A stretch of DNA of 64,000 nucleotides from Haliotis rufescens (lineage: Eukaryota), in contig NW_025964223.1 of assembly GCF_023055435.1 (NCBI RefSeq), positions 47,120,001-47,184,000 on the forward strand, in the 5' to 3' direction. The notes beneath the pieces were generated by a model. The model had not been told where the DNA came from. It saw only the letters and a list, made by a program, of their open reading frames with translations, and did no database searches. Both the position numbers and the translations under genes were made by a program. Below, one piece after another: positions 22,263 to 64,000 of this stretch (position 1 is the first letter of the stretch; the number at the start of each line of letters is the position of its first letter).

Positions 22263-25094
22263 GGAGGAAATGAATATAGATTGCCATGTTGTCTGACTGT
22301 AGATATGATTTGTGATCATGCTTAGTATTCGTGCTTCAGGGTAATTATTATGGTCTTCAATCATTCCTTCTCTGGAGATCTGTAGGTGATGCTTTCACAC
22401 TGATGGAAGGAAGTCATTAAACCCAAAAAATTCAACTCAACTTATATCATATATTTTCTGCTTTGCTTTTTCATACTGCTTTAAATATTTCAGGTTCATA
22501 ACATCTCTGGCGTTTTGACTGGACAATAACCTCTTAAATGTATACAAATTAGGCCATTCATTCTTGTAAGCAATTGCTAGTATTCAAGTCTATGTTTTAA
22601 CAAATAATGAAATTCGCCTGCAACTAAAGGAGAGTTTCAACTCAGGCGTAGCATCGATCGCAATGTCGCGCGCCGTCACAGTTGGAAGTTGGAAGTTATG
22701 CGAGTGTGAATGTGAGGACCTAATTGGGTTTTTTAACTGTTCGAGCATTTAGGGGTTTTGTATGCTTAATATGGATACTTGGGACTCCCAAATGAGTTCG
22801 AGACAACCAGGATTTCGACACATCCAATTCGACAGATCCGAGGATAAATGATGTTGAATATAATAGGAATCGCATGAAACGGTTGGTGCATTCGCGACAA
22901 CCATGAATTCTACACATCTAAGTTCCACAGAAAGAGGTTCGACTATGTCAGGAGAAATATTTTTCGTGTCAAAATCTTTATGAGCCAGATGTACATTTAC
23001 ATCACACCCTGTATAAGTTGTGTATCCCTTATGCGATGCTTGTTTTATCTTACACGCCTATTGTGTGTACAATAAAATGTTGACTAAAACACTCCTATCT
23101 GTTGTCATTGTTGTATTTTATTGCCTTTTTTTCATCTCTCAACAAATCACAGTATTACTGAGAACTTGCTTTTATTACGTAAACACATGTAATTTGCTGT
23201 TTAAGAACATGAATGAGCTGATCAGAATTGCTCCTGCTTTACATGAACCAGTGAAACAAAACGGCCGCTGGTGATGATCGTTTTGTTGTTTTCCATGTAC
23301 TTGCATTTCGTTCCAGTTCTTGAAAGTAATTCTCACGATGACCACGTGTCAACCTCACGTGTCAAACTCACATTTCGGTGTGAATCTTTTCATCACTCCT
23401 GTATACAACCGGAATGACAACACAGAACCAAAACTAAATGAACCTATTCATAACAGTGCAGAAGTAAAACATATCTGACCACAGTGTGTAAAGATAATGG
23501 CAATCTAGCCTTAATGTCTGTATATTTATTGTTTTGCCTTTGCATGGTAAGGTGGAACAAGTGACACGTGTACCTTCTATTAAGTATGCAGTCTTTAACA
23601 TGCTACTCAGTTAGCCTTAGAAAAGTGATGAAGTATATACACACACACGTTGTGGAAAATAATAACTTTTGTTTTATTGTTGATGTATTACTACAATTGT
23701 CCTTGTTGCAATGGTAATGGAATCACCTGTTTTTGCTGCCATGACAACAGATCATAGAACACAAATGTGTAGTTATTAATCATTACCCTCCAGCCGGTAG
23801 GGGGCTCAGGGAATAGCCCCATTAAGAGGCTGAGATCCTCGTGGTCCAGTCCTGACATGGTAGACAAGACATTGTTGAAGCTTTCGTCAGGTGTTTTGGT
23901 TTTGGGTTTAGGGCAACTAGATTCCACACGTGCCTTACTTGAAATGAATGTTATTGGTCATGTTAAGAAAATCTGCAGCAACGAACTGTGGGCATTGAAA
24001 GTCATTTAAGGGAAACGATCTCACCTGGCTGTGCTTCCTTTTCACAAGGTTAAACGTATTCGCCTTCCACGGTCCTGCGGTTTTCAAACCTGGTAGTGAG
24101 ATAAATATTCGTCTGCAAGAACTTGGAACACTGTTTTAATCCCACTTCCTATTTTGCTGCAATTCTTTGAGTGTGCAACTCTAGGTCTGTCAGCAATGTC
24201 TAGTTTGAATTATATGGCGTAATAAGTGGCATGGATCAGTGCCATTTATTCATATTTAATCTTTCTTGATATCAATATCTATGATTGTTATTTGAGAAAA
24301 GGGAAACTATTTCTAAGCTAATTGGTAATCCCATTTAAAAACAAATACGATGCACGGTATGCAGATTTTATATATACATTCCAGCGACCTAAAGGTGTAA
24401 GTTATGTTTTAGGTATATGTACACTATTACGTGTGTAACCTTTATGTTTTGGAAATGAATCAACAGATAATGTACTCGTGTGAGCAGTGACGTGTCATAA
24501 CAAGAGACATGTATCAGAGTCCTTTATTTATCTTATGTTTCGTTCATTTTTTGTCACCAACGAAAATATGGTTTCTGATAAGAATTTGTGGATATTGATA
24601 TATGGTTTTTTTTGGTTGGTGTATCCTGTTTGTTGAGTGGTTAAACTTGTTATGTTACCACATCACTTAATTTCTTTTTGTAGTCTCTCAACATGACATC
24701 AAAGCTGATTTTCTTTGATGGAACTGAAAAGAAACAATGGTTATGTGTCAACTCTTATCAAACCCAATTCATTTCCAGTTCTTTCTCGTTAATGAAATGT
24801 GTCCATCTATTCTATTTATGTACATATAACACTTCATGCTCATACCAAACAAACTTATGCATAATAAATGAAACGGCGTCACAACACGATAGCTGGTTCA
24901 TTCATTGGTTATTCTGCCATTAAGTCTTTAACAGGGTCAGTAATTGCTCAACATTTTGCAGTAATTATGAAGAAGAAGAAAATTGTTTTATTAAAGTGTC
25001 ACATGCTGCAGTACTAAATATATGGACATATAAACATTTCATTAAAAAACAGCACCCGGCCAGTTGGCCTACGAGACACTAATTACATAATGGT

Positions 25095-25233
25095 NNNNNN
25101 NNNNNNNNNNNNNNNNNNNNNNNNNNNNNNNNNNNNNNNNNNNNNNNNNNNNNNNNNNNNNNNNNNNNNNNNNNNNNNNNNNNNNNNNNNNNNNNNNNNN
25201 NNNNNNNNNNNNNNNNNNNNNNNNNNNNNNNNN
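25095..25233. other. Assembly gap (N run)
   Basis: 139 N. Confidence 1.
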
Positions 25234-25329
25234 GTATATTACTACACCCACACTCACACCGATACACCCACACACACATCCGCATTAAAATCCCGCTCAA
25301 AGCATTCAAACAGGTAAGCATACAAACAG

Positions 25330-25510
25330 GTAAGCATACAGGACGCTCACAGCAATCTCATACAGGACACTCACAGCAGTTTCATACAGAACACTCACAG
25401 CAATCTCATTCAGAGCACTCACAACAATTTCATACAGAACACTCACAACAATCTCATTCAGAACACTCGCAGCAATCTCATACAAAACACTCACGGCATT
25501 CTCATACATG
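25330..25510. repeat. 24-bp minisatellite
   Basis: CATACAG(G/A)ACACTCACAGCAATCT variants, about 7 copies. Confidence 0.85.
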
Positions 25511-28500
25511 TCATACATTTATACACATATGCGTCCATATACACACAACTTTATACATCAATCGTGTATACTAACCTACATGTATAACTAGCATACATAC
25601 TAACATACCAACCTATATACATACCTATATTCATCAAACATAAATCAATCCTTATTATACATACACAGGTCCATCCATACCTATGTCCGTTTAAACACAC
25701 CTCAATCCAAATATACTAACACACATACGACCATACATCCATACCTATATTCATCCATACACATATCGATCCATATGTACATACACACATACAACCATAC
25801 CTATATCCATCCATTCACACCTCAGTCCATATATACATATACATATACACATACAACCATACCTATATCCATCCATTCACACCTCAGTCCATATATACAT
25901 ATACATATACACATACAACCATACAAGTGTCGTACTGAATACAGTATGAACATACATTAAATACAACAGATGATATAAATGAGAGGCACTGTGTACTAAC
26001 GTACATAAACACACCCGCCTACACACCTACGTGCATATATAAGACAATGCATAACATTATGGATGGGATAAAAAGTAATTAAAAATAAAAGCTAACAGTT
26101 TATATAAAGTTTACGGCGCCTGTACATTCTGTAGACAAGGGAGGCTAGGGATTTACTTATACATGTATACAATTATGTATACAGTAGTTTGAATCTTTCA
26201 CGCTGCATCGTGACAACTCATTAGATTAGTAGCAAATAATAATAATAATTATATTTCAACCAATTTATTTCATTAAGAATATATTATATCTTTCTGAAAC
26301 ATCCTTCTTAGATCAGAATTTCGAAAGGTTCAAATGATACGGAATACACAATGTTTAAACAAATCAATGCACCATGCTGTGCATACCGAGAGTATTTGTT
26401 CTGTCAGAGGATGCGTAAATGGATTCAACAACAAAAGTAACCCAGGCATCGACTTCCCCTCCATCTGTAACAGGTGAACATGTAAAACATAATTATAAAA
26501 AAGATCAAAACCACACGAAGAATCATTTTTAAAAAAGTTTATTCGTGTGTGTTGTGAGCGACCATCTAAACCAGTACCTTGTGATTTCAAGGTTATAACA
26601 TATGCATATTAAGGACGGGCCAATTTAGATTTGGGGGTGGGGTAGGGGTGAGATTTGTGATAGGGACCGCATATTTTCTTCTGCTGCTTTATGACAGGGG
26701 TCACAGAAGCTATGAATATCCACATCCTTGATGTTAAACATGTTGGTTTTACAGGCCTCCGTCGGATGAAAGGAATACTGTCTGTCAATAACTACTTAAT
26801 ACAGATACAAATTGTGTGAATGGCGGGTGCTACCGGTAGGGCAGGACATGCTGACTCTTTTCGCAATCACCTGGTGTCATCCCTGATGTTTAGTGGTCCA
26901 TTCATGTAATTTCCACAGCTATGTGCCCTCAATGCGAAGTGGAATCTGTTTCAGTGGATAATCAAGACTGGTTATTCTCTGGGATTGACGGTTTACATTT
27001 ACAAAGCTGAAATATACAAATCATGAGAACTGATTGTTCCATTCCATTCATCCTGCAAAGACATCCAATTGGAAGTTGCAACTGATTAAAAAATCAACGT
27101 TTATACAACATTTATCTGTCAACATGATATGTTAAAAGTTGAACCCCAGGACCAACTGCATCATGTTGTCATCACGAATCGTATTCTGGTGGGAGCCATA
27201 TTTGATAGTGAGTCAGTTAATATTTTACGTCACCTCGGCAATATTTTAGCCTTATCGTGACGACCATATTTAATAAAATCAGAGTAAAGTGCAACAACGA
27301 ATCTAGCACATTTGGATCATGTGTGAGGTAACCAAAACCCCAAAACCCTTTTCCATAATGATGACAAAATCTCTGCTAAAGGCAATCTGTCGTACGATTC
27401 CGACTTTAAATAGTGAGGATACCAGGTTTTCCCGAAAATGTGACGGGATCCGAACAACAAAAGGTTGCTCCCAACGCCGAGGGTTTACATTGTTTTAACC
27501 AAACCCGAGGCACAGTGTTTTTACTGAAACGATAATTTAATTTTCCAGAATACATTTCATGAACCTTAGGAAACGGGAGTAAAATATATCTTGCTAGCGT
27601 ACATGTATTTGAAAGAGACATTCCTAAAAGCAAAAGTGGATCACTCACTGCGCTACTGATACGAAGCTTGTAGGTTCGATGCCACTGAAATATAAGTTAC
27701 ATTTGTCTTTTGATTTAACATTAATCCGCACATTTCCTGAAGTTATCATTATATTATGTGCTCTATGAATTCTGTTTAACAGCTAAATATATCTATTGGA
27801 GTGTGGGATTTTCTATGGAATATCCCTGGGATAGAAGGATACTCTGGAGATAGAAAACAAGGCACCGTAAAATAATAGGATGACATCAATATAGGTTGTT
27901 TGAAGATATAAAAAGATCAAATGACAATGCGATGAAGTCAATGGAGGTTTATGAATCACATATAAAACATGATACGCGGTTTCAGGGGTCTCTCTTATTT
28001 TCTGTTTCTATGTTGGTAAATCAGTGGAACGGGGTTAGCCATTTTACAATTATTGAAGGCTATCAGATCATCGATATACATGACGATTATAATTTCTGTT
28101 AATCTCTTGGCCAAATTCCCTTGTTTTGACTTTGCCAATCAAGACAGTACTTCTGCATTACGAAACAGATGAGCAAGGAGGGGAATACAACCGGTACCCA
28201 TGGGGATGCCAACTTCTGTAATATCTAAATGTCCTACTCCCACAGTTCAGAAAAATGTTAACTCCGTGGAAGTCAAACATTTCACATATTATTTTCTTCG
28301 TATATTCCAGATGAAATTTTCTTTAATTTTGACACATTATCCTTAACTTGAGATGTAACTATATCTATGGTCACATTAACTGACAAATGCTCAATGGAAC
28401 TATACATGAATGATAATATTAGTGGACGGTGACTCCTAATCCGGTAACCCTACTGAAGACTTAGTCTGTACAGTTTTCAGATCATGTTGAACTTCCGTTT

Positions 28501-29121
28501 GTATTGTTTTTAAGTTCCATTTGTCATACCCAACATTTACAAGTTTCACGCTTTTCTCAACCCATTAACAGGAGGTTAATCAATCTCTCACTTTCATTTC
28601 AAGTGTTGCCACTTTCATTTTAATTTTAGAAATAACGTTATCAGTCAGGTCAGGTTTAGAAGGTTTTAATCAATGCTTGCCTGACTTTCCTTTATACATT
28701 TTGTCCAATCTGCACCTGTGGGTAGTAGGTCGATCTACGTCATGACAGTCCACGGGTTAATAGTAGTAGTTTATTCAAAAGCTGAATAAGGCTATCAGCA
28801 AAGGCCATTATACAAAATAATAACAAAAATACTCGAAACGCATGTTCGATTATGGACACATTGTCACGGTATAGGGGTTAATATCTGCTAGGCCCATCGA
28901 TACTAGCTGGTGTAATGAGCTGTGTAAGTAGTCGTCAGCTATTAGTCTAGTCAAGACTCGATCATGTGCTTGTGGCCGTGATAATGCTGGATTGCTGCTG
29001 ACATCAATGTTCACTGTTACTCACTTGCTCACTAGTTGTTCATGAAGACATGCAGTATGTTCATTTTACAGAGTTTTTCCTGTGTTCCTGTTCTAGGTGC
29101 ATCCGTTTTCATATTTGCGCC

Positions 29122-49602: not shown

Positions 49603-50681
49603 TACTCTTCAAAAAAAGAAACTTGACACTGACTTTCAAAATGTAATATAATGCGATTGTTTCAAAATAGGACACAGAAACCATAATTGAAACACTGTTT
49701 GAAGATCAATGTACACAATGTTCAAAACATTAATCATGTCACCTAGACAGACACACGTACACGATACAGTTAATGTCACAGGGGTACAGTACAGTACAAA
49801 TGTCAGTATCGGTTGTGCCCACCACGTGCATCAATCACCGCTTGACACCGACGACCCACAGATGCAACCAAGTTGTCAATAACACGCTGTTGGATGTGCT
49901 GCCATTCATGCTGAAGTGCATCAAGAAGCGCCGGAAGTGTTTGGGGCTGTGGATTCCTTCTGCGAACGCTTCGATCCAACTCGTCCAAAAGATGCTCAAT
50001 CGGGGACAAATCTGGTGACCGGGCTGGCCAAGGTAATGTCTGGATGGTGCTGTAAGAAGTCCTGACAAACACGTGTAATATGCGGTCGAGCGTTGTCCTG
50101 CTGGAACTGTCCGCCATGAACGTTGACGTGAGGAAGAACGTAAGGCTGTAGGATCAAGTCTCTGTAACGCACACCTGTCAATGCACCTGCCACATGCACG
50201 AGAGGCGTCCTACCACCGTGATGAATTCCGGCCCATACCAAGCCACTCCCGCCGCCAAATGGGACAACCTGCTGCACACAGTTGGGGGCGTAACGTTCAC
50301 CCCGACGTCTGTAGACACGTGCGCGCCCTCAGCACGTGTGAGTAGGAAACGGGACTCGTCAGTAAACAGTACATTTCTCCACCTTGCACGTGCCCATCTA
50401 ACCCTCTGTTGGCACCAAAGCAGACGGTCCGCCAGATGACGTGGGGTTAATACATGACGTCAAACAGGTCTTCGTGCAAAAAGTCCAGCCTCCCTCAGTC
50501 CGTTTGATCTCATATTATGCGTACCCAAACGCTACGTTTATGTGCTTTGCATGTGTTTTCGCGAATTATAGACACATCATCTTTCTGTTTGACTTATTTG
50601 GTTCTCATTTAATGTAATTAGTTTAGATATTTGGCAAAAAGTGGTTTTACATCTATGTCAAGTTTCTTTTTTTGAAGAGTA
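49603..50681 (-). mobile_element. Internally deleted Tc1-type transposon (~1.08 kb)
   Basis: Perfect 26-bp TIR TACTCTTCAAAAAAAGAAACTTGACA; motifs FTDES, FQQDNARPH, WPARSPDLSPIEHL and GGHNRY; the N-terminal DNA-binding region is missing. Confidence 0.93.
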
Positions 50682-53390: not shown

Positions 53391-54150
53391 TTACACAAAG
53401 CTGTGGTAGAGGTCATTGGTAACCATGTCAACCTCCTCTTCTGCTTCACCCTGTGTAGTGATATCTAGGGTAGCCGAAGCAGACACTTCCTCACACTCAC
53501 CACTCTGCTCTGCAACTGTATTGTCATATCCAGAACTCTCATACATATCATTGTCAACCATTCCTTCAACTGTATCGCCCCTGATTGCCTCTTCTCTTTG
53601 ATACAGGTCTTCGGGCATGCTATCTTCATCCTGATTACCGCCATCTGTACTTACATCAAGGTTCTCAGCAGTAGGAGGTCCTCCATTGTATACATCGTTT
53701 TCGGTCATATGACATGTGGAACCTGTACTGTTTCCTGCATCAGAGAGACACCTGTCCATCGATTCAAGGTGATCATTGATCGTTTCGATATCTTTGTCTT
53801 CATTTGAGCCTATCGAATTATCTGTTGATGTAATACTGCCTGGCTGTTTGGTCGTAAATGTGTTGTTGTCTTTCATGTTTAATCTATAGCTGTGTGGCAA
53901 TACTGTAGAGTAGCTGTCTTGTACTCGGAGCGGGCTGGTTCCTTCTTCTGTTTTTGATTCTGTATGCAATGCCACATCCCCATTTCCAGCTACGAATTCT
54001 GGATCTATGATGAAATAATGTTGACTGTCGTCATTCTTTCGTAAACCATTGTGATGTTTTCCATTGTCGACAGAGTTGAGCTCAAGATGTCTTCCAAAGC
54101 TACAGTTGCGGGGAGAAGTTACAGAACGGCGGGTTTTACTATTTTTACAC
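53391..54150 (-). CDS. Gene C terminal exon: acidic cytoplasmic tail paralogous to gene B (upstream exons not found in window)
   Basis: Phase-2 acceptor GTATTGTAG|G gives R-CKNSKTRR; open for ~250 codons. Shares MDRCL/MDTCL, CHMTENDVY/CDMTENDIY and MVDNDMY, MVTNDLY/MVENDIY with gene B. Confidence 0.82.
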
Positions 54151-54167
54151 CTACAATACACAAGAAG

Positions 54168-55001
54168 TAAGACGAGTTCTATGGATGAACAACTTCTTTA
54201 TTACAATTGGTGCGACGTTTCGGTGTAGATCCTAACACCTTTATCAAGCAAGTGATGGATAGGGCTAAACAACATAGGTATATATACACTTATTGACATC
54301 TAAGTTGTTACAGTGACTAGTGATGGGCACAGAGAGGTGATTAAGCTAATTGGAAGCCAGTGGATGACTGATGAACACAGAGTATACTAGCAGAGTAAAC
54401 AAGCTAACTGATGGAGATGATGGAAGCCACTGTATTAATTGGATGGACAAAGGGATTGAGCAATTAGGTGATGGTAAGCAGGCGGGATGTAATAGCCTTG
54501 GTCTCTGTTCATTGCTGGCTGGATCCTTTTGATGTGGATGGCTTCTAGGAGTTTCCTGATTTTGTAGTCTGATTGGTTGTTGGCCAGGATCTTGATGTTG
54601 TTCCACTGGATGTTGTGATCGGGGTGGGTTTGGGTGTGGTCGGAGATGGCTGATTTTGAGTCATTTTTTTGTACTGAGGTCTTGTGTTCTTTTATTCTAA
54701 TGGGTAGGAGCCTGGATGTTTCTCCTACATAGGAGTCGTCGCAGTCACATTGTATGTGATATACGGCTCCAGCTGGGTCTTCTTTCTTAGATGTAGGGGG
54801 CTTGCCATTGGCGCTGAGGGTGTTCTGGATTGTCCTGCCTCTCTGGAATACTGAATCAATGTTGGCGTGGTCTTTGAGCAGTCTGCGGATCTGGTGGCTG
54901 GCTGTTCCTATGTAGGGAAGACTGATGACGAACGGGGCTATCTGTTTTCGTGGAGGCCGCTCTCTTTATCACTCGAACTTCTAAATGCCACTCAAAGAAG
55001 T
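54168..55001 (-). mobile_element. 5'-truncated Penelope-like element (GIY-YIG endonuclease end, ORF ~54960-54435) with 13-bp TSD
   Basis: Manual translation SLPYIG...GAVYHIQCDCDDSYVGETSRLLPIRIKEH...SAISDH...RKLLEAIHI...MNRDQG; AATACACAAGAAG at 54155-54167 and 55002-55014. Confidence 0.92.
54211..54250 (-). ncRNA. Minimal hammerhead ribozyme, U3-A8 covariant
   Basis: Minus strand TGC-TTGATAA-A-GGTGT(TAGGATCT)ACACC-GAAAC-GTC-GCA. Confidence 0.75.
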
Positions 55002-56613: not shown

Positions 56614-57995
56614 ATTGAATTTTTCTTGATATCAATTATTGTTATTTGAGAAAAGGGAAACTATTTCTAAGCTAATTGGTAATCCAATTTAAAAACAAAT
56701 ACGCTGCACTGTATGCCTGTTTTACATATACATATAAGCAACCTAAAGGTGTAAGTTATGTTGTAGGTATATGTAAACTATTACGTGTGTAACCTTTATG
56801 TTTCGGAAATGAATCAACAGATAATGTACTCGTGTGAGGAGTGACGTGTCATAACAAGAGACATGGATCAGTGTTCTTTATTTATCTTATGTTTCGTTCA
56901 TTTTTTGTCATCAGCAAAAATATAGTTTCTGATAAGAATTTGCGGATATTAATATGGGTTTTTGGTTCTTGTATCTTGGTTGTTGAATGGTTAAACTTGT
57001 TATGTTACCACACCACTTAATTTCTTTTTGGAGTCTCTCAACATGACATAAAAGCTGATTCTCTTTGATGGAACTGAAAAGAAACAATGGTTATGTGTCA
57101 ACACTTATCAAACCCAATTCATTTCCAGTTTTTTCTCGTTAATGAAATGTGTACATCTATTCTAATTATGTACATATAACACTTCATTCTTATAACCATC
57201 AAACTTATGCATAATAAATGAAACGGTGTCACAACACGATAGCTGGTTTATTCATTGGTCATTCTGCTGTTAAGTCTACAACAGGGTCAGTAATTGCTCA
57301 ACATTTTACAGTTATTATGTATACAGTAGTTTGAATCTTTCACACTGCATCGTTACAACTCAGTAGATTAGTAGCAAATAATAATATATTTCAACCAATT
57401 TATTTCATTAAGTATATATTATATCTTTCTGAAACATCCTTCTTAGATCAGATTTTCAAAAGGTTCAAAAGATACACAATTCATCAGAACGGAATACACA
57501 TGTTTAAACAAATCAATGTCCTTAATATTTTACGTCACCTCGGCAATATTTCAGCCATATCGTGACGACCATATTTAATAAAAACCAGAGGAAAGTACAA
57601 CAACGAATCTAGCACATTCGGATCATGTGTGAGGTAACCAAAACCCCAAAACCCTTTTCCATAATGATGACAAAATATCTGCTAAAGTCAATCTGTCGTA
57701 CGATTCCGACTTTATAGTGAGGATACAAGGTTTTCCCGAAATGACGGGATCCGAACAACAAAAGGTTGCTCCAAACGCCGAGGGTTTACATTGTTTTAAC
57801 CAATCCCGAGGCACAGTGTTTTATCTGAAGTGCCTTAGCAGCCGAAAGAAAAATCTGAAACGATATTTTAAACAATTTAATTGTCCAGAATAGAAGAAGA
57901 AGAAGTCTTTATTTGTACCAAGGCCACTGGCCCATATACAATACATACATTTGAAATAGTGTGGTACATGAAAAAAGGTAATGTCAGGTACAAAT

Positions 57996-60900
57996 TTACA
58001 GGTTTACAGGCTTTTCATAATTACGTCTTCTTTCATAGCTGTAATACAGGTATTTACATAGTTTTCCAAGTAATTGTTTACACGAAGATGACAGTAGCGT
58101 TTTAAATTTATGCATATTTGGATTATTGCAAAATGTTGTTGGTAAATACAGATGTCTAATATCGTTGTAATATTCACATTCTAAAGTAAAATGATATTCA
58201 TTCTCTATACTTGTTTCACATATGGGGGCAGAGTCGTAAACGTAAGTCAATATCAGCCCATCTACCTTCGTTTACCTTAAGTCTTAGTAGCCCGGCTCTA
58301 AGCCTTATCAAAACATTTCGATATTTTATTTCAGTAATAATGGAAAGGTATTTTTCTGGTTCCAGGAGACTTTTAAATTCTTTATACAGAATGTACCTAG
58401 AACTAGCCTTGATAGTACTATTCCATGATTGGTAGAACATATTTATCAAAACGTTTTTAAAACTATTCATGAATGATGGTTTGTCGCCAACAGCTTGACT
58501 GAGCCAAACTACTCCGAATCCGTGAGAAAATAATATGGAACGAATAGAAGAAGCATAGTTATGTCGACCACACTTGTCGTTATATACAAGCATATTATAA
58601 GATTTTCTTGGTATCCTATCTTCGTCCATTTCAATCAGTTTTAGCCAATACTTTACAGAACGACACATAGCATTTACATGTAGTGGGTACCGACCGCATT
58701 CCCCATACACAATAGCATTTGGGGTTTGCAAACCAACGTTAAGAAACTTCTTACAAGCCATAATATGCACTTGTTCTATTTTTTCAAATCTGTCTACACC
58801 CCATATTTCCGCACCATATAAAAGAATAGGTTGAATCTGAGTATCAAATATTTTAAAGAAAACTGAAGTGTCAACAAAACCAATCTTCCGTAGATTGCGA
58901 AATATTTGCATTAAAGCTCGTTTACCCCTTGACGCTAGATCTGAAACACATTGGTTCATCTTTGATGTATATGAGAATACAAACCCAAGATATCTATAGG
59001 AGTTGGCGGTTGAAATACGTTTGCCTTTATAGAACCATTTCTCATAAACAGATAACCGCCCTCCTCGTCTAAATACAACAACACTCGTTTTATCTAAATT
59101 AACCGTTAATCCATGTGAATCTGCAAAGTTATCAAGAATATTAAGTTGGTTCTGTAAACCAGTTACTGTGTCAGAGACAAGAATAACATCGTCGGCAAAC
59201 AATAATAATAATATTTCAAACAAGTCAGGAAATAATTGTACGCCGTGTTTCCCATGTGATGAAACATCATTTGACAGTTCATTGATGAAAAAGGAAAATA
59301 ATAGAGGGCTTAATATACAGCCTTGTTTAACTCCGTTAGGACAATCAAAATATTCTGTATAAATGTTATCATTACATCTCACACACGCTTTCACGGAGGC
59401 ATAGATCCCCTTAAGTGCTCTCATCATCTTTCCACCCAAGCCTACATCGTGCAGACACTCCCATAGTTTAAGATGATTTACTGAATCAAAGGCTTTTTTA
59501 AAATCCACAAAAGCAACGTATAATTTCCCTTTTCTTTTCGATAAACATTTGTTAACAATTGCATTCAACGTGAATATGTGGTCAGCAGGAGAATATCCCT
59601 GTCTAAAGCCTGCTTGTGTCTCGGGTAATTTATTTCTTATATTAGCCCAGTTGGTAAGTCTAGAGTTTAAGACACTTGTGTAAACCTTACTAATTGTACA
59701 CAATAGAGATATCCCTCTAAAGTTATCTGGATTATTTTTGTTACCTTTCTTATGTAGTGGAAGGATAATAGCTTTCGTCCAGTTCTGAGGGAATAATCCA
59801 GAATCAAATAACTTATTGAACAAATTTCGTAGGAAAGGAGTTATTACATTTTCACAACATTTTAACATTTCAATGACCACGTCATCAACACCAGGGGATT
59901 TGCCATTCTTTAAACGATTTATAGTCTTGTGGATTTCTGAGTCGGTAATCGGCGACTCCATAATACACTGGTCAATCTCATCAAGTATAAAATCTTCATC
60001 ACATTGACATTCGACTTCAGCATGTAATACATCTGTACACTGAAAAACGTTTGTAAAATGATCAAACCAGCACTCTTTACTTATGTTATTCTTTGTTTCC
60101 CTACGACCTGATATACTCCGTAACTCCTTCCAAAATGTGGTTGAATCAGATAGAGATAGCTTTAGTTTTGTTCGTGTCATAAATTGATAGTTTGATTTTG
60201 CTGTTCTGCAAACATGTTTATACTTGTTTCTCATTTTACAAAAGATTAACTTATTTTCGTTAGATTTCTTCTCTTTGAATTTCCTCATGTATCGCCTCGC
60301 TTCCCGTTTTGCTCGTCTGCATTCACTATTACAAAACCCCGTATTTCGGGGTGAACTTTTAACACAAGTTACCTTCATACAGTCAGCGGCACAAAGAACA
60401 ACATTAACAAATTTTTCGAGGGCAAGATTGAAATCAAAAGTTAAAAGATCGATGAGCTCATTGAAGGATGGACATAGATTTGTTATTCTTCCTATAAACA
60501 CATCACGCTTACGAGGGTTCCATTTATATTTGTGTGTTTTGGTGGAAAGATAATCATCACTTGTAGATGCTTTAGGGAGAAATATGTCCAAATGTAGACA
60601 TACAGGCATATGTTTTGACTCAACTCTTGTATCCACAAACATGGATTGACAACAATTGTGAACATTAACTGAACCTATAAAATAATCGATTACGCTACAT
60701 CCTTGATCTGCTATGTAAGTGAAACTACCCTCTTTGTCTCCAGTTGTCCTGCCGTTGAAGATATATAAATCATGAGTGAAACACAGTTCCAGTAGTTTAC
60801 GACCAAAAGCGTTTACAAAACTATCACATGACTGTCTCTTTTCTACTGGAACGGGTGGTTCATCGGGGAATGCTGCATTGTTGAGGCCACGTTGAGTTAG

Positions 60901-61467
60901 TGTCTCAGGTGGGTTGTTTCCCCCGCCTAGACGGGCATTCAGGTCCCCACAGATGATGACCTCACAGTCTAAGTCACTATGCTCAATCAACCACTGGTCA
61001 ACCAATTCAATGGCGGTTGCCTTTTCAGCTGCAACGTAGAATGTTGAGCCGATGGGTGGAACATACATTCCAAATAATAACAGGTTTTTGCCAAGAGTTG
61101 AGAAATTATCAAATTTAATGCATACGACATTGTGTATATCTAATTCAATCTGTTGGCAGTGCAGGTCTATACGAGTCTTAACCAACAACGTTACACCGCC
61201 TGACAGTCTACCAGCCTTAGCTAGCCTATGAGCCTTTGCAATATATGTGGCATAAGCTGACAGCTGAGGTATGGATAATGCATAGTCAATAAATGTTTCA
61301 ACTAGACATATAATTTCGAAGCCTTTTATGTAATCTAAAAAGTCTAGATCGTCTATTTTGGAAAGAAAACCTTCAATATTCCATGTAACTATTTTGAGGT
61401 TTGATATGGAAATGGAATGTTCTGCACCTGATAATTCAGAAGTGATGGTAGGGGCCGGGCCGTATCC
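57996..61467 (-). CDS. LINE ORF2: AP endonuclease, reverse transcriptase, C-terminal CCHC knuckle; open from 61467; one-base frameshift at 58224-58228
   Basis: TWNIEG, CLVET, SGGV, GDLNAR, IDYF, SKHMPV (APE); FVDFKKAFDSV, GVKQGCILSPLLF, LFADD, YRYLG (RT); RLCP/ICETSIENEYHFTLEC across the shift. Confidence 0.93.
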
Positions 61468-62709
61468 CTAGCTACTGTCCGCGGTAGCACTGTGCTCGGA
61501 ATTGCTGTTGGGGGCGGAGTGGACAGCTCTTAGAGGTTGGGCATTCCGGGAAACAGGAACAGTAGTGGTTGGTTTAGCATGTACATATCTCCGTGTCGAT
61601 TCGTGTCTGGATGTGTTGTCATGGGTACCAGGTTTTGTGACCAGTCTACCATTTTTGTAGTACGCATCTAGGCCTTTGTCCCTCAGATCAGCTAGAGTCT
61701 GTCTCTGGTGCTTGGTTAGGTCGTTAGCAACGCCTATAGCAACACTCCTCAAGGTATGTCTGTGCTTCAGTACTATAATCTTCTCCTCCGTCAGAGAAAA
61801 CTTAGCAATGAGAGGGCGGGGTTTATTGGGTTGCGGCTGTTTGACCCCTATCCGATGCGCCCGTATAATATCTGGGCGTTGCCAATCCTTTGTCTTCACA
61901 TGCTCATTGAGCATAGTAATAACTTTATCCTTGCACATTTCGAAGGTCTCATCAGCTTCTTCAGGCACGCCATAAAATACTACGTTATCCCGACGACTGA
62001 AGGCCTCTAACCTGTCGATATCAGAGTCTTGACTAGATACCTTGTCTTCAAGTTGTTCAACTTTCTGATAGAGTGCATCTATATCACTGTAGATAGTCTC
62101 CTGTCCAAGTCCAACCCATTCTACCTCTGAGCGCACTTCTGAAAGTGAGTTCTCAAGTGATGAACACTTGCTGCTAAGGTCGGTTAGTTGTGATTTAATT
62201 ACACTCATCTCGGTGAACAGAGACTGTCGGAAATCCCGTAGTTCTGCGAGGATATCTGATTTGATCTCAGTCTTTACATTGTTCAAATCTTCCATAGTAA
62301 CAGGCCCTGGGTTGGTCTCAACATCACCAGAGAGTAGTATATGGAGTCTCGTTACATATCCTGCGATGCGGAGACCGTCACAGTTGAGTAATGAAGTCGC
62401 AAAACATGGCCGACATGCATGACTTGTCACAGGGATAAACATAGTGACGTCACATACACTTTCGTGTTCATGTGGTAAATAACGATGAAGATCCTCAACG
62501 GCGTTAGAGAGAACTTGTTTGTTAGCTAGCAGAATTGCCGACAGCATGAGTTGGAGTGTAAGCAAGACCATGCAGACTGATACACGCAGCGGTGTATCAG
62601 AGCACGACATGTGAGGTGTGTACTCAGCGTCCATTGCGATATGTCTCACCTGTCGGGTCCCTGGAGGGTGGGTAAACTGCCCGATCCTGGCTCTATAAGT
62701 CTCAAGATC
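61468..62709 (-). CDS. LINE ORF1: hydrophobic leader, 2A-like peptide, coiled coil, L1-ORF1p-like RNA-binding region
   Basis: LLSGDVETNPGP; heptad-rich segment; RRDNVVFYGVPE, IIRAHRIG, PRPLIAKF and ANDLT motifs. First ATG inside the element is at 62634; the track start at 62775 lies in host flank. Confidence 0.9.
   Translation of the reverse strand, partial: DLETYRARIGQFTHPPGTRQVRHIAMDAEYTPHMSCSDTPLRVSVCMVLLTLQLMLSAILLANKQVLSNAVEDLHRYLPHEHESVCDVTMFIPVTSHACRPCFATSLLNCDGLRIAGYVTRLHILLSGDVETNPGPVTMEDLNNVKTEIKSDILAELRDFRQSLFTEMSVIKSQLTDLSSKCSSLENSLSEVRSEVEWVGLGQETIYSDIDALYQKVEQLEDKVSSQDSDIDRLEAFSRRDNVVFYGVPEEADETFEMCKDKVITMLNEHVKTKDWQRPDIIRAHRIGVKQPQPNKPRPLIAKFSLTEEKIIVLKHRHTLRSVAIGVANDLTKHQRQTLADLRDKGLDAYYKNGRLVTKPGTHDNTSRHESTRRYVHAKPTTTVPVSRNAQPLRAVHSAPNSNSEHSATADSS
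62302..62349 (-). other. 2A-like StopGo ribosome-skipping motif RLHILLSGDVETNPG/P
   Basis: Exact match to the consensus GD(V/I)ExNPG-P with the upstream LL(S)G tract. Confidence 0.92.
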
Positions 62710-64000
62710 TTCATGAACCTTAGGAAACGGGAGTAAAATATATCTTGCTAGCGTACATGTACTTGTAAGAGACATTCATAAAAGCAAAAGTGGATCACTC
62801 ACTGCGCTACTGATACGAAGCTTGTAGGTTCGATGCCAATGAAATATAAGTTACATCTGTCTTTTGATTTAACATTATTCCGCACATTTCTTTAAGTTAT
62901 CATTATATTATGTGCTCTATGAATTCTGTTTAACAGCAAAATATACCAATTGGACTGTGGGACTTTCTATGGATTATCCCTGGGATAGAAGGATACTCTG
63001 GAGACAGAAAACAAGGCACCGTAAAATAGTAGGATGACATCAACATAGGTTGTTTGAAGATATAAAAAGATCAAACGACAATACGATGAAGTCAATCGAG
63101 GTTTATGAATAACATATAAAATACGATACGCGGTTTCAGGGGTCTCTTTTTTCTGTTTCTATGTTGGTAAATCAGTGGAACGGGAATAGCCATTTTACAA
63201 TTATTGAAGGCTATCAGATCATCGATATACATGACGATTATAATTTCTGTTGGCCAAATTCCCTTGTTTTGACTTTGCTAATCAAGACAGTAATTCTGCA
63301 TAATGAAACCGGTAAATACAACCAACTTCTGTAATATCTAAATGTCCTACTCCCACAGTTTAGAAAAATGTTAACTTCGTGGAAGTCAAACATTTGACAT
63401 ATTATTTTCTTCGTATATTCCAGATGAAATTTTCTTTAATTTTGACACATTATCCTCAACTTGAAATGTAACTATATCTATGGTCACCACGTTTACTGAC
63501 AAATGCCCAATGGAACTATATATGATTGATGCTATTAGTGGACGGTGGCGCCTAACCCGGTAACCCTACTGAATTCTAGACTTAGTCTGTACAGTTTTCA
63601 GATCATGTTGCACTTCCGTTTGTATTGTATTTACGTTCCAATCGTCATACACAACATTTACAAGTTTCACGCTTTTCTAAACCCATTAACAGGAGGTTAA
63701 TCAATCTCTCACTTTCATTTCAAGTGTTGCCACTTCCATTTTATTTTTAGAAATAACGTTATCAGTCTGGTCATGTTAGAAGGATTTAATCAATGCTTGC
63801 CTGCTTTTCCTTTATACATTTTGTCCAATCTGCACCTGTGGGTAGTAGGACATGAATGCCCACGGGGTTAATAGTAGTAGTTTATTCAAAAGTATGGTGG
63901 CTGAATAGGGCCATCAGCAAGGGCCATGATACAAAATAATAACAGAAATACACGAGACGCATGTTCGAAGTATGGACACATTGTCCCGGTATAGGGGATA

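Follow-up and report, generated by a model that had tools for sequence, protein, structure and literature searches.

Among long interspersed nuclear elements (LINEs), L1 has a 63-nt spacer and an AUG between its two open reading frames (ORFs), and SART1 has UAAUG (PMC5972666; statements on published work refer throughout to the available portions of the sources). Readthrough of a UAG followed by G is known from other systems. In gag-pol of the gammaretrovirus Moloney murine leukaemia virus (MoMLV), a type III site, the stimulator begins 8 nt past the stop (PMC3159437, PMC13517186). In the tombusvirus carnation Italian ringspot virus (CIRV), UAG-G readthrough in p33/p95 makes the polymerase, and a proximal readthrough element (PRTE) pairs with a distal one (DRTE) across ∼3.5 kb; its proximal element forms a bulge within a large stem-loop, the 3′ element takes part in mutually exclusive structures, and the interaction was proven by mutagenesis (PMC3234231). 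Here we analyse a 64,000-nt stretch of the Haliotis rufescens genome (NCBI RefSeq assembly GCF_023055435.1, contig NW_025964223.1, positions 47,120,001 to 47,184,000 of the forward strand; ‘the window’, numbered from its first letter), in which ORF1 and ORF2 of a LINE on the minus strand share one reading frame that a lone UAG interrupts. Comparison with related elements makes it probable that its ORF2 protein (ORF2p) is produced by programmed UAG-G readthrough, as an ORF1p–ORF2p fusion.

The ORF1–ORF2 junction in the window and in related elements

The features that bear on the junction are:

57892..62709, minus strand: LINE insertion of 4.8 kb, an APE endonuclease–reverse transcriptase (RT) retrotransposon without long terminal repeats (non-LTR); both ends set by an empty-site paralogue at 27217-28880
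61468..62634, minus strand: ORF1, 388 codons from the first ATG (62634), with leader, 2A-like motif, coiled coil, L1-type RNA recognition motif (RRM) and C-terminal domain (CTD), and low-complexity tail
61468..61470, minus strand: the lone in-frame TAG, with G as its next base; putative readthrough codon
61384..61467, minus strand: stop-free linker of 28 codons to the first APE motif
60667..61389, minus strand: APE endonuclease domain (WN at 61383-61378, E of LVETF at 61299-61297)
58978..59745, minus strand: RT domain (FADD at 59199)
57996..58271, minus strand: C-terminal CCHC knuckle, out of frame after a C5 run (58228-58224)

From 62775 down to 58216, the frame has no stops except the TAG at 61470-61468 and a TGA at 58218-58216, which confirms the claim of the first-pass annotation of this DNA that the two ORFs are one frame split by a single UAG. 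This TAG is the one occurrence of the codon among the 1,471 codons of the LINE. Past it the frame reads GYGPAPT...KIVTWNIEGF...LVETF...RLSGGVTLLVK. Counting codons from the TAG, the W of WNIEG is +29, LVETF starts at +55, the first TTG (the start of the listed 990-aa ORF) is +94 and the first in-frame ATG (61068) is +134, inside the APE endonuclease; the same annotation had correctly placed the earliest start past the WN and ET motifs. An ATA at 61407-61405, 60 nt past the stop and eight codons before the W, aligns with a Met in some relatives.

The asparagine of the WN motif and the glutamate of the ET motif are catalytic in APE endonucleases; in the window LINE both motifs align with the first-strand N and ET of ExoA and of the L1 endonuclease. 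Pfam matches to the 1083-codon stretch after the TAG were Exo_endo_phos (residues 27-267) and RVT_1 (residues 575-830). An AlphaFold model of ORF2p, built from a 58-sequence alignment, had mean pLDDT 85.5, with residues 1-19 disordered (pLDDT <50), and its best structural match was L1 ORF2p. Six strands precede Met134 in the model; therefore an ORF2p initiated at the AUG would lose the N-terminal ∼40% of the endonuclease. The first-pass annotation held that such a product would be dead.

The ORF2 frame of the window copy ends just before a CPIC...EYHF knuckle that resumes in another frame. This one-base break at 58228-58224, overlooked in the first-pass annotation, seems to reflect decay of the copy or an assembly error; all 23 related junction loci whose ORF2 is near-complete keep the knuckle in frame. 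Since the window copy is damaged and carries an ATA near the W, a private mutation had to be excluded.

Relatives were collected with the junction-spanning protein as query, its stop written as X (best 150 protein matches), and by a scan of GTDB with the ORF2 alignment, from which the best 80 of 194 confirmed stretches were used; 42 of these have an APE N-terminus and 40 have upstream sequence as well. These eukaryotic LINE contigs, many of them near-intact, lie in bacterial species-representative assemblies of GTDB (JBEVXV, JBHNNM, JAICBP and others); they are evidently host contamination, and probably represent collapsed multi-copy families. Positions of WN are approximate for six loci (L014, L023, L029, L031, L036 and L049), which affects gap lengths and leaves phase and stop counts intact.

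To avoid circularity, the main count was anchored on a match to an ORF1 hidden Markov model, with 27 loci having detectable ORF1 and APE. An in-frame TAG with no further stop before the APE domain was found in 24 of the 27, against 1.7 of 26 expected from random phase and the off-frame stop rate. The stop is TAG-G in 23 of these 24 loci and TAG-T in one; their linkers add up to 851 codons, and 20 of the 24 have no ATG before WN. Conservation of the stop, of its phase and, in most cases, of the following G is thus what related families show, and the fusion by amber readthrough proposed in the first-pass annotation gains support from it. A further tally (989 linker codons without a stop, 96 expected) was discarded as circular, given that the junction had been defined there as the last stop before WN.

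Context was studied in 30 junctions, defined among the 40 loci by a TAG that has, in the frame of APE, 150 or more open codons ahead of it. The junction stop is TAG in 30/30, while long ORF2s terminate in TAA (18), TGA (4) or TAG (2) (n = 24; Fisher p 4e-13). Position +4 is G in 27 of the 30 (background 0.32, p 5e-11), position −1 is A in 21 (background 0.26, p 6e-7), a purine occupies +5 in 25, and the stretch from +10 to +15 is rich in G. No ATG precedes the WN-type motif in 25 of the 30 junctions, as in the window; a predominance of sense codons at this site or of AUGs before WN, which had been named as evidence against readthrough, was not observed in these related families. Five of the 30 lack even the common near-cognate starts before WN. 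Stop-free linkers range from 5 to 308 codons, the stop lying only five codons before the W in L036, L046, L049 and L053; the longest linker (TAG to APE, L044:1543-2470) compares with 102 codons in L015.

In a tree of RT sequences (46 rows, no reference clades; L004, L055 and the 38 loci that lack an APE start omitted) the junction loci are scattered, with identities of 28-81% (median 38%). At such divergence an untranslated spacer would not hold phase and remain stop-free.

Natural fusions also exist. The protein P0007, either a spliced gene model or translated directly, is an ORF1–APE fusion that aligns across the junction with a similar linker length. The locus L050 has no stop; it carries TTC in the column where its sister L048 has TAG, the peptide is kept on both sides, and from the stop to the W the two differ by three synonymous and four replacement codons, with eight codons identical. 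The L050 fusion site lies at ∼1130-1180. By comparison, 43 of 44 ORF1 homologues, among them the two closest (62%), end without an APE domain. Fused ORF1–ORF2 proteins were absent among longer proteins (0 of 3 matches), and none of the best 120 ORF2 matches exceeds 1326 aa. Among these 120 near-full-length relatives, 55 are annotated with a start downstream of the WN motif, which suggests, as far as the gene callers can be relied on, that start codons are lacking group-wide.

Ten of the 40 loci fall outside the junction set. L050 is the fusion described above. In L009, a sister of L015, TGA-T (79-100) replaces TAG-G, with the same GGCC box at the same distance and 26 codons to the contig edge. 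The frame stays open to the contig edge in L062 and L063; in L061 no ORF1 was seen and there is no ATG. The other members of the ten count against a uniform readthrough junction: L028 has ORF1, a spacer with eight more stops and its own ATG; an ATG precedes WN in L025, L040 and L078, as it does in L063; and ORF1 of L031 ends in TAG-C one base out of phase, its ORF2 having an early stop. Within the set, 5/30 junctions do carry an in-frame ATG and 3/30 lack the +4 G. Fusion was seen in only 1/44 ORF1 homologues and 1/27 loci; permanent fusion is therefore rare. Furthermore, a single assembly (JBEVXV) supplies 23 of the 30 junctions and five others the rest, common descent makes all p-values optimistic, and the relatives are distant families rather than sister copies of the window element, the closest ORF2 being 51% identical and the closest element with junction DNA ∼55% in RT.

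The group resembles L1 and SART1 in being bicistronic APE-type LINEs, with an L1-type ORF1p and an ORF2p fold nearest to that of L1; it differs in having one stop, mostly no AUG and natural fusions. We conclude that the junction is a real, conserved feature, and that a known recoding mechanism would operate here in an element class for which we found no report of it. The literature search for readthrough between LINE ORFs, whose coverage excluded most subscription journals, Repbase Reports and bioRxiv supplements, returned none. In their available portions, PMC5009743, PMC4176336, PMC13517186 and PMC3894237 mention no programmed readthrough between LINE ORFs; PMC4176336 has leak-through of premature stops in L1 ORF2 only, and the commentary PMC3894237 lists re-initiation, internal ribosome entry sites and 2A as routes to ORF2.

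Linear context and possible pairing with the 3′ end

The comparison of UAG-G with the gammaretroviral context, also made in the first-pass annotation, holds up: UAG-GGA of the window fits the type III motif UAG GGR. As in MoMLV gag-pol (type III of Beier and Grimm), a structural ORF is followed by an in-frame UAG-G and then by a retroelement enzyme ORF; the window element differs in being a non-LTR element with an L1-type ORF1p and APE-RT, and no fusion-processing protease was found for it.

A second difference concerns local structure. It had been suggested that the GC-rich run after the stop pairs with it (UAGGG/CCCUA) and may be part of a stimulator. The pairing does appear in the minimum-free-energy fold, while a stimulator stem found no support: the segment 61380-61500 folds no better than its shuffles (z +0.84; 164/200 shuffles as good). 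Across 31 junctions there was no folding excess either (mean z −0.16 and +0.05), and the compact local 3′ stem or pseudoknot of the gammaretroviral subtype was not seen, with pseudoknots not modelled explicitly. An Rfam scan gave no credible match, just two sub-threshold chance ones.

Two further segments come into consideration as arms of a long-range interaction:

61447..61461, minus strand: G/C-rich box (GGCC...) from 6 nt past the stop, the proposed proximal arm
57921..57940, minus strand: 3′-terminal hairpin GGGCC-AGT-GGCCT (57933-57921) with flank, the proposed distal partner, ∼3.53 kb downstream of the stop

A GGCC-type box at +10 is common to the window LINE and its closest relatives. 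In the window, the box (61461-61447) is predicted to form a duplex of −20.0 kcal/mol with 57940-57921, and a small 3′-end hairpin is the partner also in L008, L013, L023, L029, L015 and L054. An initial test against the last 90 nt of the guessed 3′ untranslated region was weak (p 0.011). We then compared the box (+7..+24) with a fixed 400-nt 3′ zone that spans −100 to +300 relative to the ORF2 stop. This covered 21 elements in which both ORF2 and the 3′ flank are complete; ten others lack one of these and were left out. The energy for the box with its own 3′ zone was −17.3 kcal/mol, against −14.2 for non-cognate zones (z −4.7); z lay between −1.6 and +1.2 for ten control boxes and was +1.3 and −1.8 for two internal control targets. 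The best downstream site for the box is in the 3′ zone in 11 of the 21 elements (1.9 expected; controls 1-5/21) and in 8 of 15 after thinning; the energy signal persists after thinning or removal of the strongest cases (z −2.6 to −4.3).

The boxes of L029 (GGCCGAGAT), L045 (GGGAGAAGT), L044 (GGGGAAG) and L054 differ from each other, and each is matched by its own partner: ATCTCGGCC in L029, ACTTCTCCC in L045, CTTCCCC in L044 and, in L054, the 3′ end of the element through a predicted duplex of 15-16 pairs. In L046 and L049 the box partner is within ORF2 coding sequence, 51 nt before the ORF2 stop in both, and the box itself codes for GFW of the first APE strand. The L048/L050/L064 group is without a 3′-end partner.

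Several observations weigh against the pairing. Perfect Watson–Crick helix length gives only z 1.8 (p 0.03), shuffles of the window box p 0.03, and the gain in co-folding is modest (z −2.6); p was also ∼0.04 for one of the control targets and one of the control boxes. For the window copy taken alone the signal is weak, and a site in ORF1 (61850-61870) scores −21.5, better than the 3′ partner. The match in L007, one of the 11, is to a GT repeat, while L048, L064, L032 and L041 have no 3′ partner within the available flank. The GGCC boxes, being near-palindromic, could also form small local hairpins.

Taken together, the sequences point to a signal composed of the linear context A-UAG-G-R and a candidate long-range pairing with the 3′ end rather than a local stem. 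That the long-range duplex forms in cells and stimulates readthrough we regard as slightly favoured by these comparisons. The closest resemblance is to CIRV, with a box past UAG-G that could pair with the 3′ end of its own RNA ∼3.5 kb away; the LINE differs in that the box lies 6-10 nt past the stop, no large stem-loop was seen, and the computational support extends to about half of the families.

Proposed mechanism and alternatives

In the proposed mechanism, most ribosomes would terminate at the UAG and release ORF1p, an abundant RNA-binding protein. A minority would insert an amino acid there and continue, yielding an ORF1p–linker–APE–RT fusion; the peptide bond across the stop, the residue inserted and the rate are inferred. 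Rare readthrough would set the high ORF1p:ORF2p ratio needed by the LINE particle. The signal would be of a type III-like kind, A-UAG-G-purine plus a G-rich box ∼6-10 nt downstream. For half of the families or more, the box could pair with the element's own 3′ end, 3.4-4.4 kb off, and would often open the terminal hairpin in doing so. Such pairing would make ORF2p synthesis depend on completeness of the RNA and could let the RNA alternate between being translated and being reverse-transcribed; this switch role is speculative and, on present evidence, rather doubtful. LINE 3′-end stem-loops have been linked to stringent RT recognition (PMC3747384), a role that the hairpin here may share. The scheme in full, a large, ancient LINE branch whose ORF1p fusion is made by amber readthrough licensed by ∼3.5-kb pairing of the box with the 3′ hairpin as probable priming site of reverse transcription, so that one switch would check transcript completeness, make ORF2p in cis and hand the RNA to RT, is a tentative proposal for which the chances are a little below even.

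Several features are explained by readthrough: which stop is used, the G at +4 and A at −1, the conserved phase, linkers that stay open, the lack of an AUG, and the existence of natural fusions. One alternative is that ribosomes terminate at the UAG and that the same ribosome restarts in frame, independently of an AUG, to make a separate ORF2p, in an event like that of L1 or of the stop-carry-on kind. The AUG of L1 ORF2 is reportedly replaceable, a result said to come from Alisch in 2006. Termination–reinitiation is a described route for L1 and SART1, with SART1 using downstream structure (PMC5972666, PMC3708506). The ATA of the window, 60 nt past the stop, is near the 63 nt of the L1 spacer, some relatives having Met there, and immediate in-frame resumption would likewise preserve phase. 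Restart leaves unexplained, however, the constant UAG-G with −1 A and stop-free linkers of anything from 5 to 308 codons; no start position is conserved, five of 30 junctions offer no common near-cognate start, and fused relatives (L050, P0007) exist. Restart is the serious rival, which we consider unlikely, with readthrough the better account. Damage private to this copy, whether a nonsense change within what had been one ORF or the loss, in an ordinary bicistronic element, of the ORF2 AUG (ATG to ATA at 61407), would agree with the 3′ frameshift, which gives the copy at least one lesion, with the single transition that separates ATA from ATG, and with the lack of a stop in P0007 and L050. 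It is nevertheless very unlikely, as 24 of 27 related loci have the same junction, 43 of 44 ORF1 homologues (including the two closest, at 62%) end without APE, and the GGCC box at +10 is common to the window and its closest relatives.

The remaining explanations concern the meaning of the TAG itself. The consensus of a 3′ splice acceptor is YAG/G, which TAG/G would fit, and ORF2 might then be translated from spliced RNA; a pyrimidine tract is absent at the junctions (0.44 against a background of 0.44), the triplet is never CAG, L009 carries TGA while keeping the box and its spacing, and under cis-preference the spliced RNA, devoid of ORF1, would be the one copied, all of which leaves splicing most improbable. 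A-to-I editing of the UAG within a duplex has a precedent in the amber/W site of hepatitis delta, where editing turns UAG into a Trp codon, UAG being a preferred triplet of ADAR; moreover, some of the predicted duplexes extend, opportunistically, across the stop. An edited RNA serving as template would erase the TAG in one generation, yet 30 families have kept it; of the fused relatives, the one with DNA (L050) has TTC rather than TGG, and the conserved pairing begins after the stop, so that editing too has a very small chance of being correct. Hosts that read TAG as sense would explain why the junction codon is always TAG. This variant code is barely conceivable given that TAG occurs once in the 1,471 codons of the window LINE and not elsewhere in the ORF1 and ORF2 frames of relatives, that it terminates ORF2 in 2 of 24 loci, and that the junction pattern recurs in six assemblies.

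The element, its setting and the meaning of the junction

The insertion qualifies as a LINE by the order of domains in ORF2 (APE endonuclease, then RT); it is discrete, ends in a tandem repeat, and its ends do not match each other (no LTRs). Two further features belong here:

57892..57913, minus strand: AATAAA (57913-57908) and (CTT)n tail (57905-57892), the 3′ end of the LINE
62302..62328, minus strand: putative 2A-like StopGo motif GDVETNPG/P, assigned from the motif, upstream of the coiled coil

No target-site duplication is present, and 4 bp are missing relative to the empty paralogous site. That site belongs to a segmental duplication (window 24254-28880 versus 56614-64000, 86-94% identity). 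Since the copy at 27.5 kb is empty, the insertion is probably younger than the duplication. A second LINE copy, considered because of a match at 27.2-28.9 kb, was rejected; the match is to the empty paralogous site and not to a sister element.

The RT motifs of the window LINE look RTE-like, as we take them. Its clade is probably RTEX, an assignment based on features that are not unique to RTEX: the element has an ORF1, these RT motifs and a (CTT)n tail. RTEX LINEs combine APE and RT, an ORF1 and a tandem-repeat tail, and are abundant in gastropods (PMC3905857, PMC3747384, PMC11203168; further background in PMC5753468 and PMC12477816); similar sequences occur in the supplement of PMC11203168, where they bear no clade label. 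An in-frame UAG junction is not described for RTEX in the available portions of these sources.

A profile built from ORF1 relatives matched L1 ORF1p (2ykp, E 8e-11) over the RRM–CTD region, while a Pfam scan of 25 relative ORF1s gave no meaningful match; the best named relative is a Haliotis asinina protein (49% identity). The pattern D(V/I)ExNPG/P, with which GDVETNPGP of the window agrees, is common to 29 of 44 ORF1 homologues. A 2026 preprint (PMC13405545) has already reported GDVExNPGP upstream of the coiled coil in an L1-type ORF1p. 2As occur in non-LTR elements, and the motif by itself is insufficient for an active 2A (PMC3708506). Compared with other 2A/StopGo non-LTR elements, the window LINE would add readthrough as a second recoding event on the same RNA, which would thus bear two (2A and UAG).

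Elsewhere in the window, three regions outside the LINE drew attention. Frameshifted fragments at 49803-50459 carry what we take to be Tc1/mariner transposase-like motifs; the single fragment scanned had no Pfam match. A 176-aa frame at 54435-54965 has a YVGET...RIKEH motif, presumably GIY-YIG-like and probably from a Penelope-like fragment, and a 268-codon acidic low-complexity frame at 53391-54197 is perhaps a host exon; neither had a significant Pfam match.

The junction also matters for annotation: 55 of 120 related ORF2 proteins are annotated with starts beyond the first catalytic motif, and repeat curators would score the TAG as decay. For LINE biology, ribosome access to ORF2 is an acknowledged open question (PMC3894237, available portion), and readthrough would give a widespread group a third answer, precisely testable, in which codon, context and candidate RNA partner are all specified. 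One implication is that ORF2p can act while tethered to ORF1p, and readthrough may offer a mechanism for cis-preference and for exclusion of 3′-truncated RNAs. It would also bring to animal cells a readthrough cassette whose design has until now been known from plant viruses and, if the long-range switch is true, would represent convergence of a cellular transposon on the tombusvirus design.

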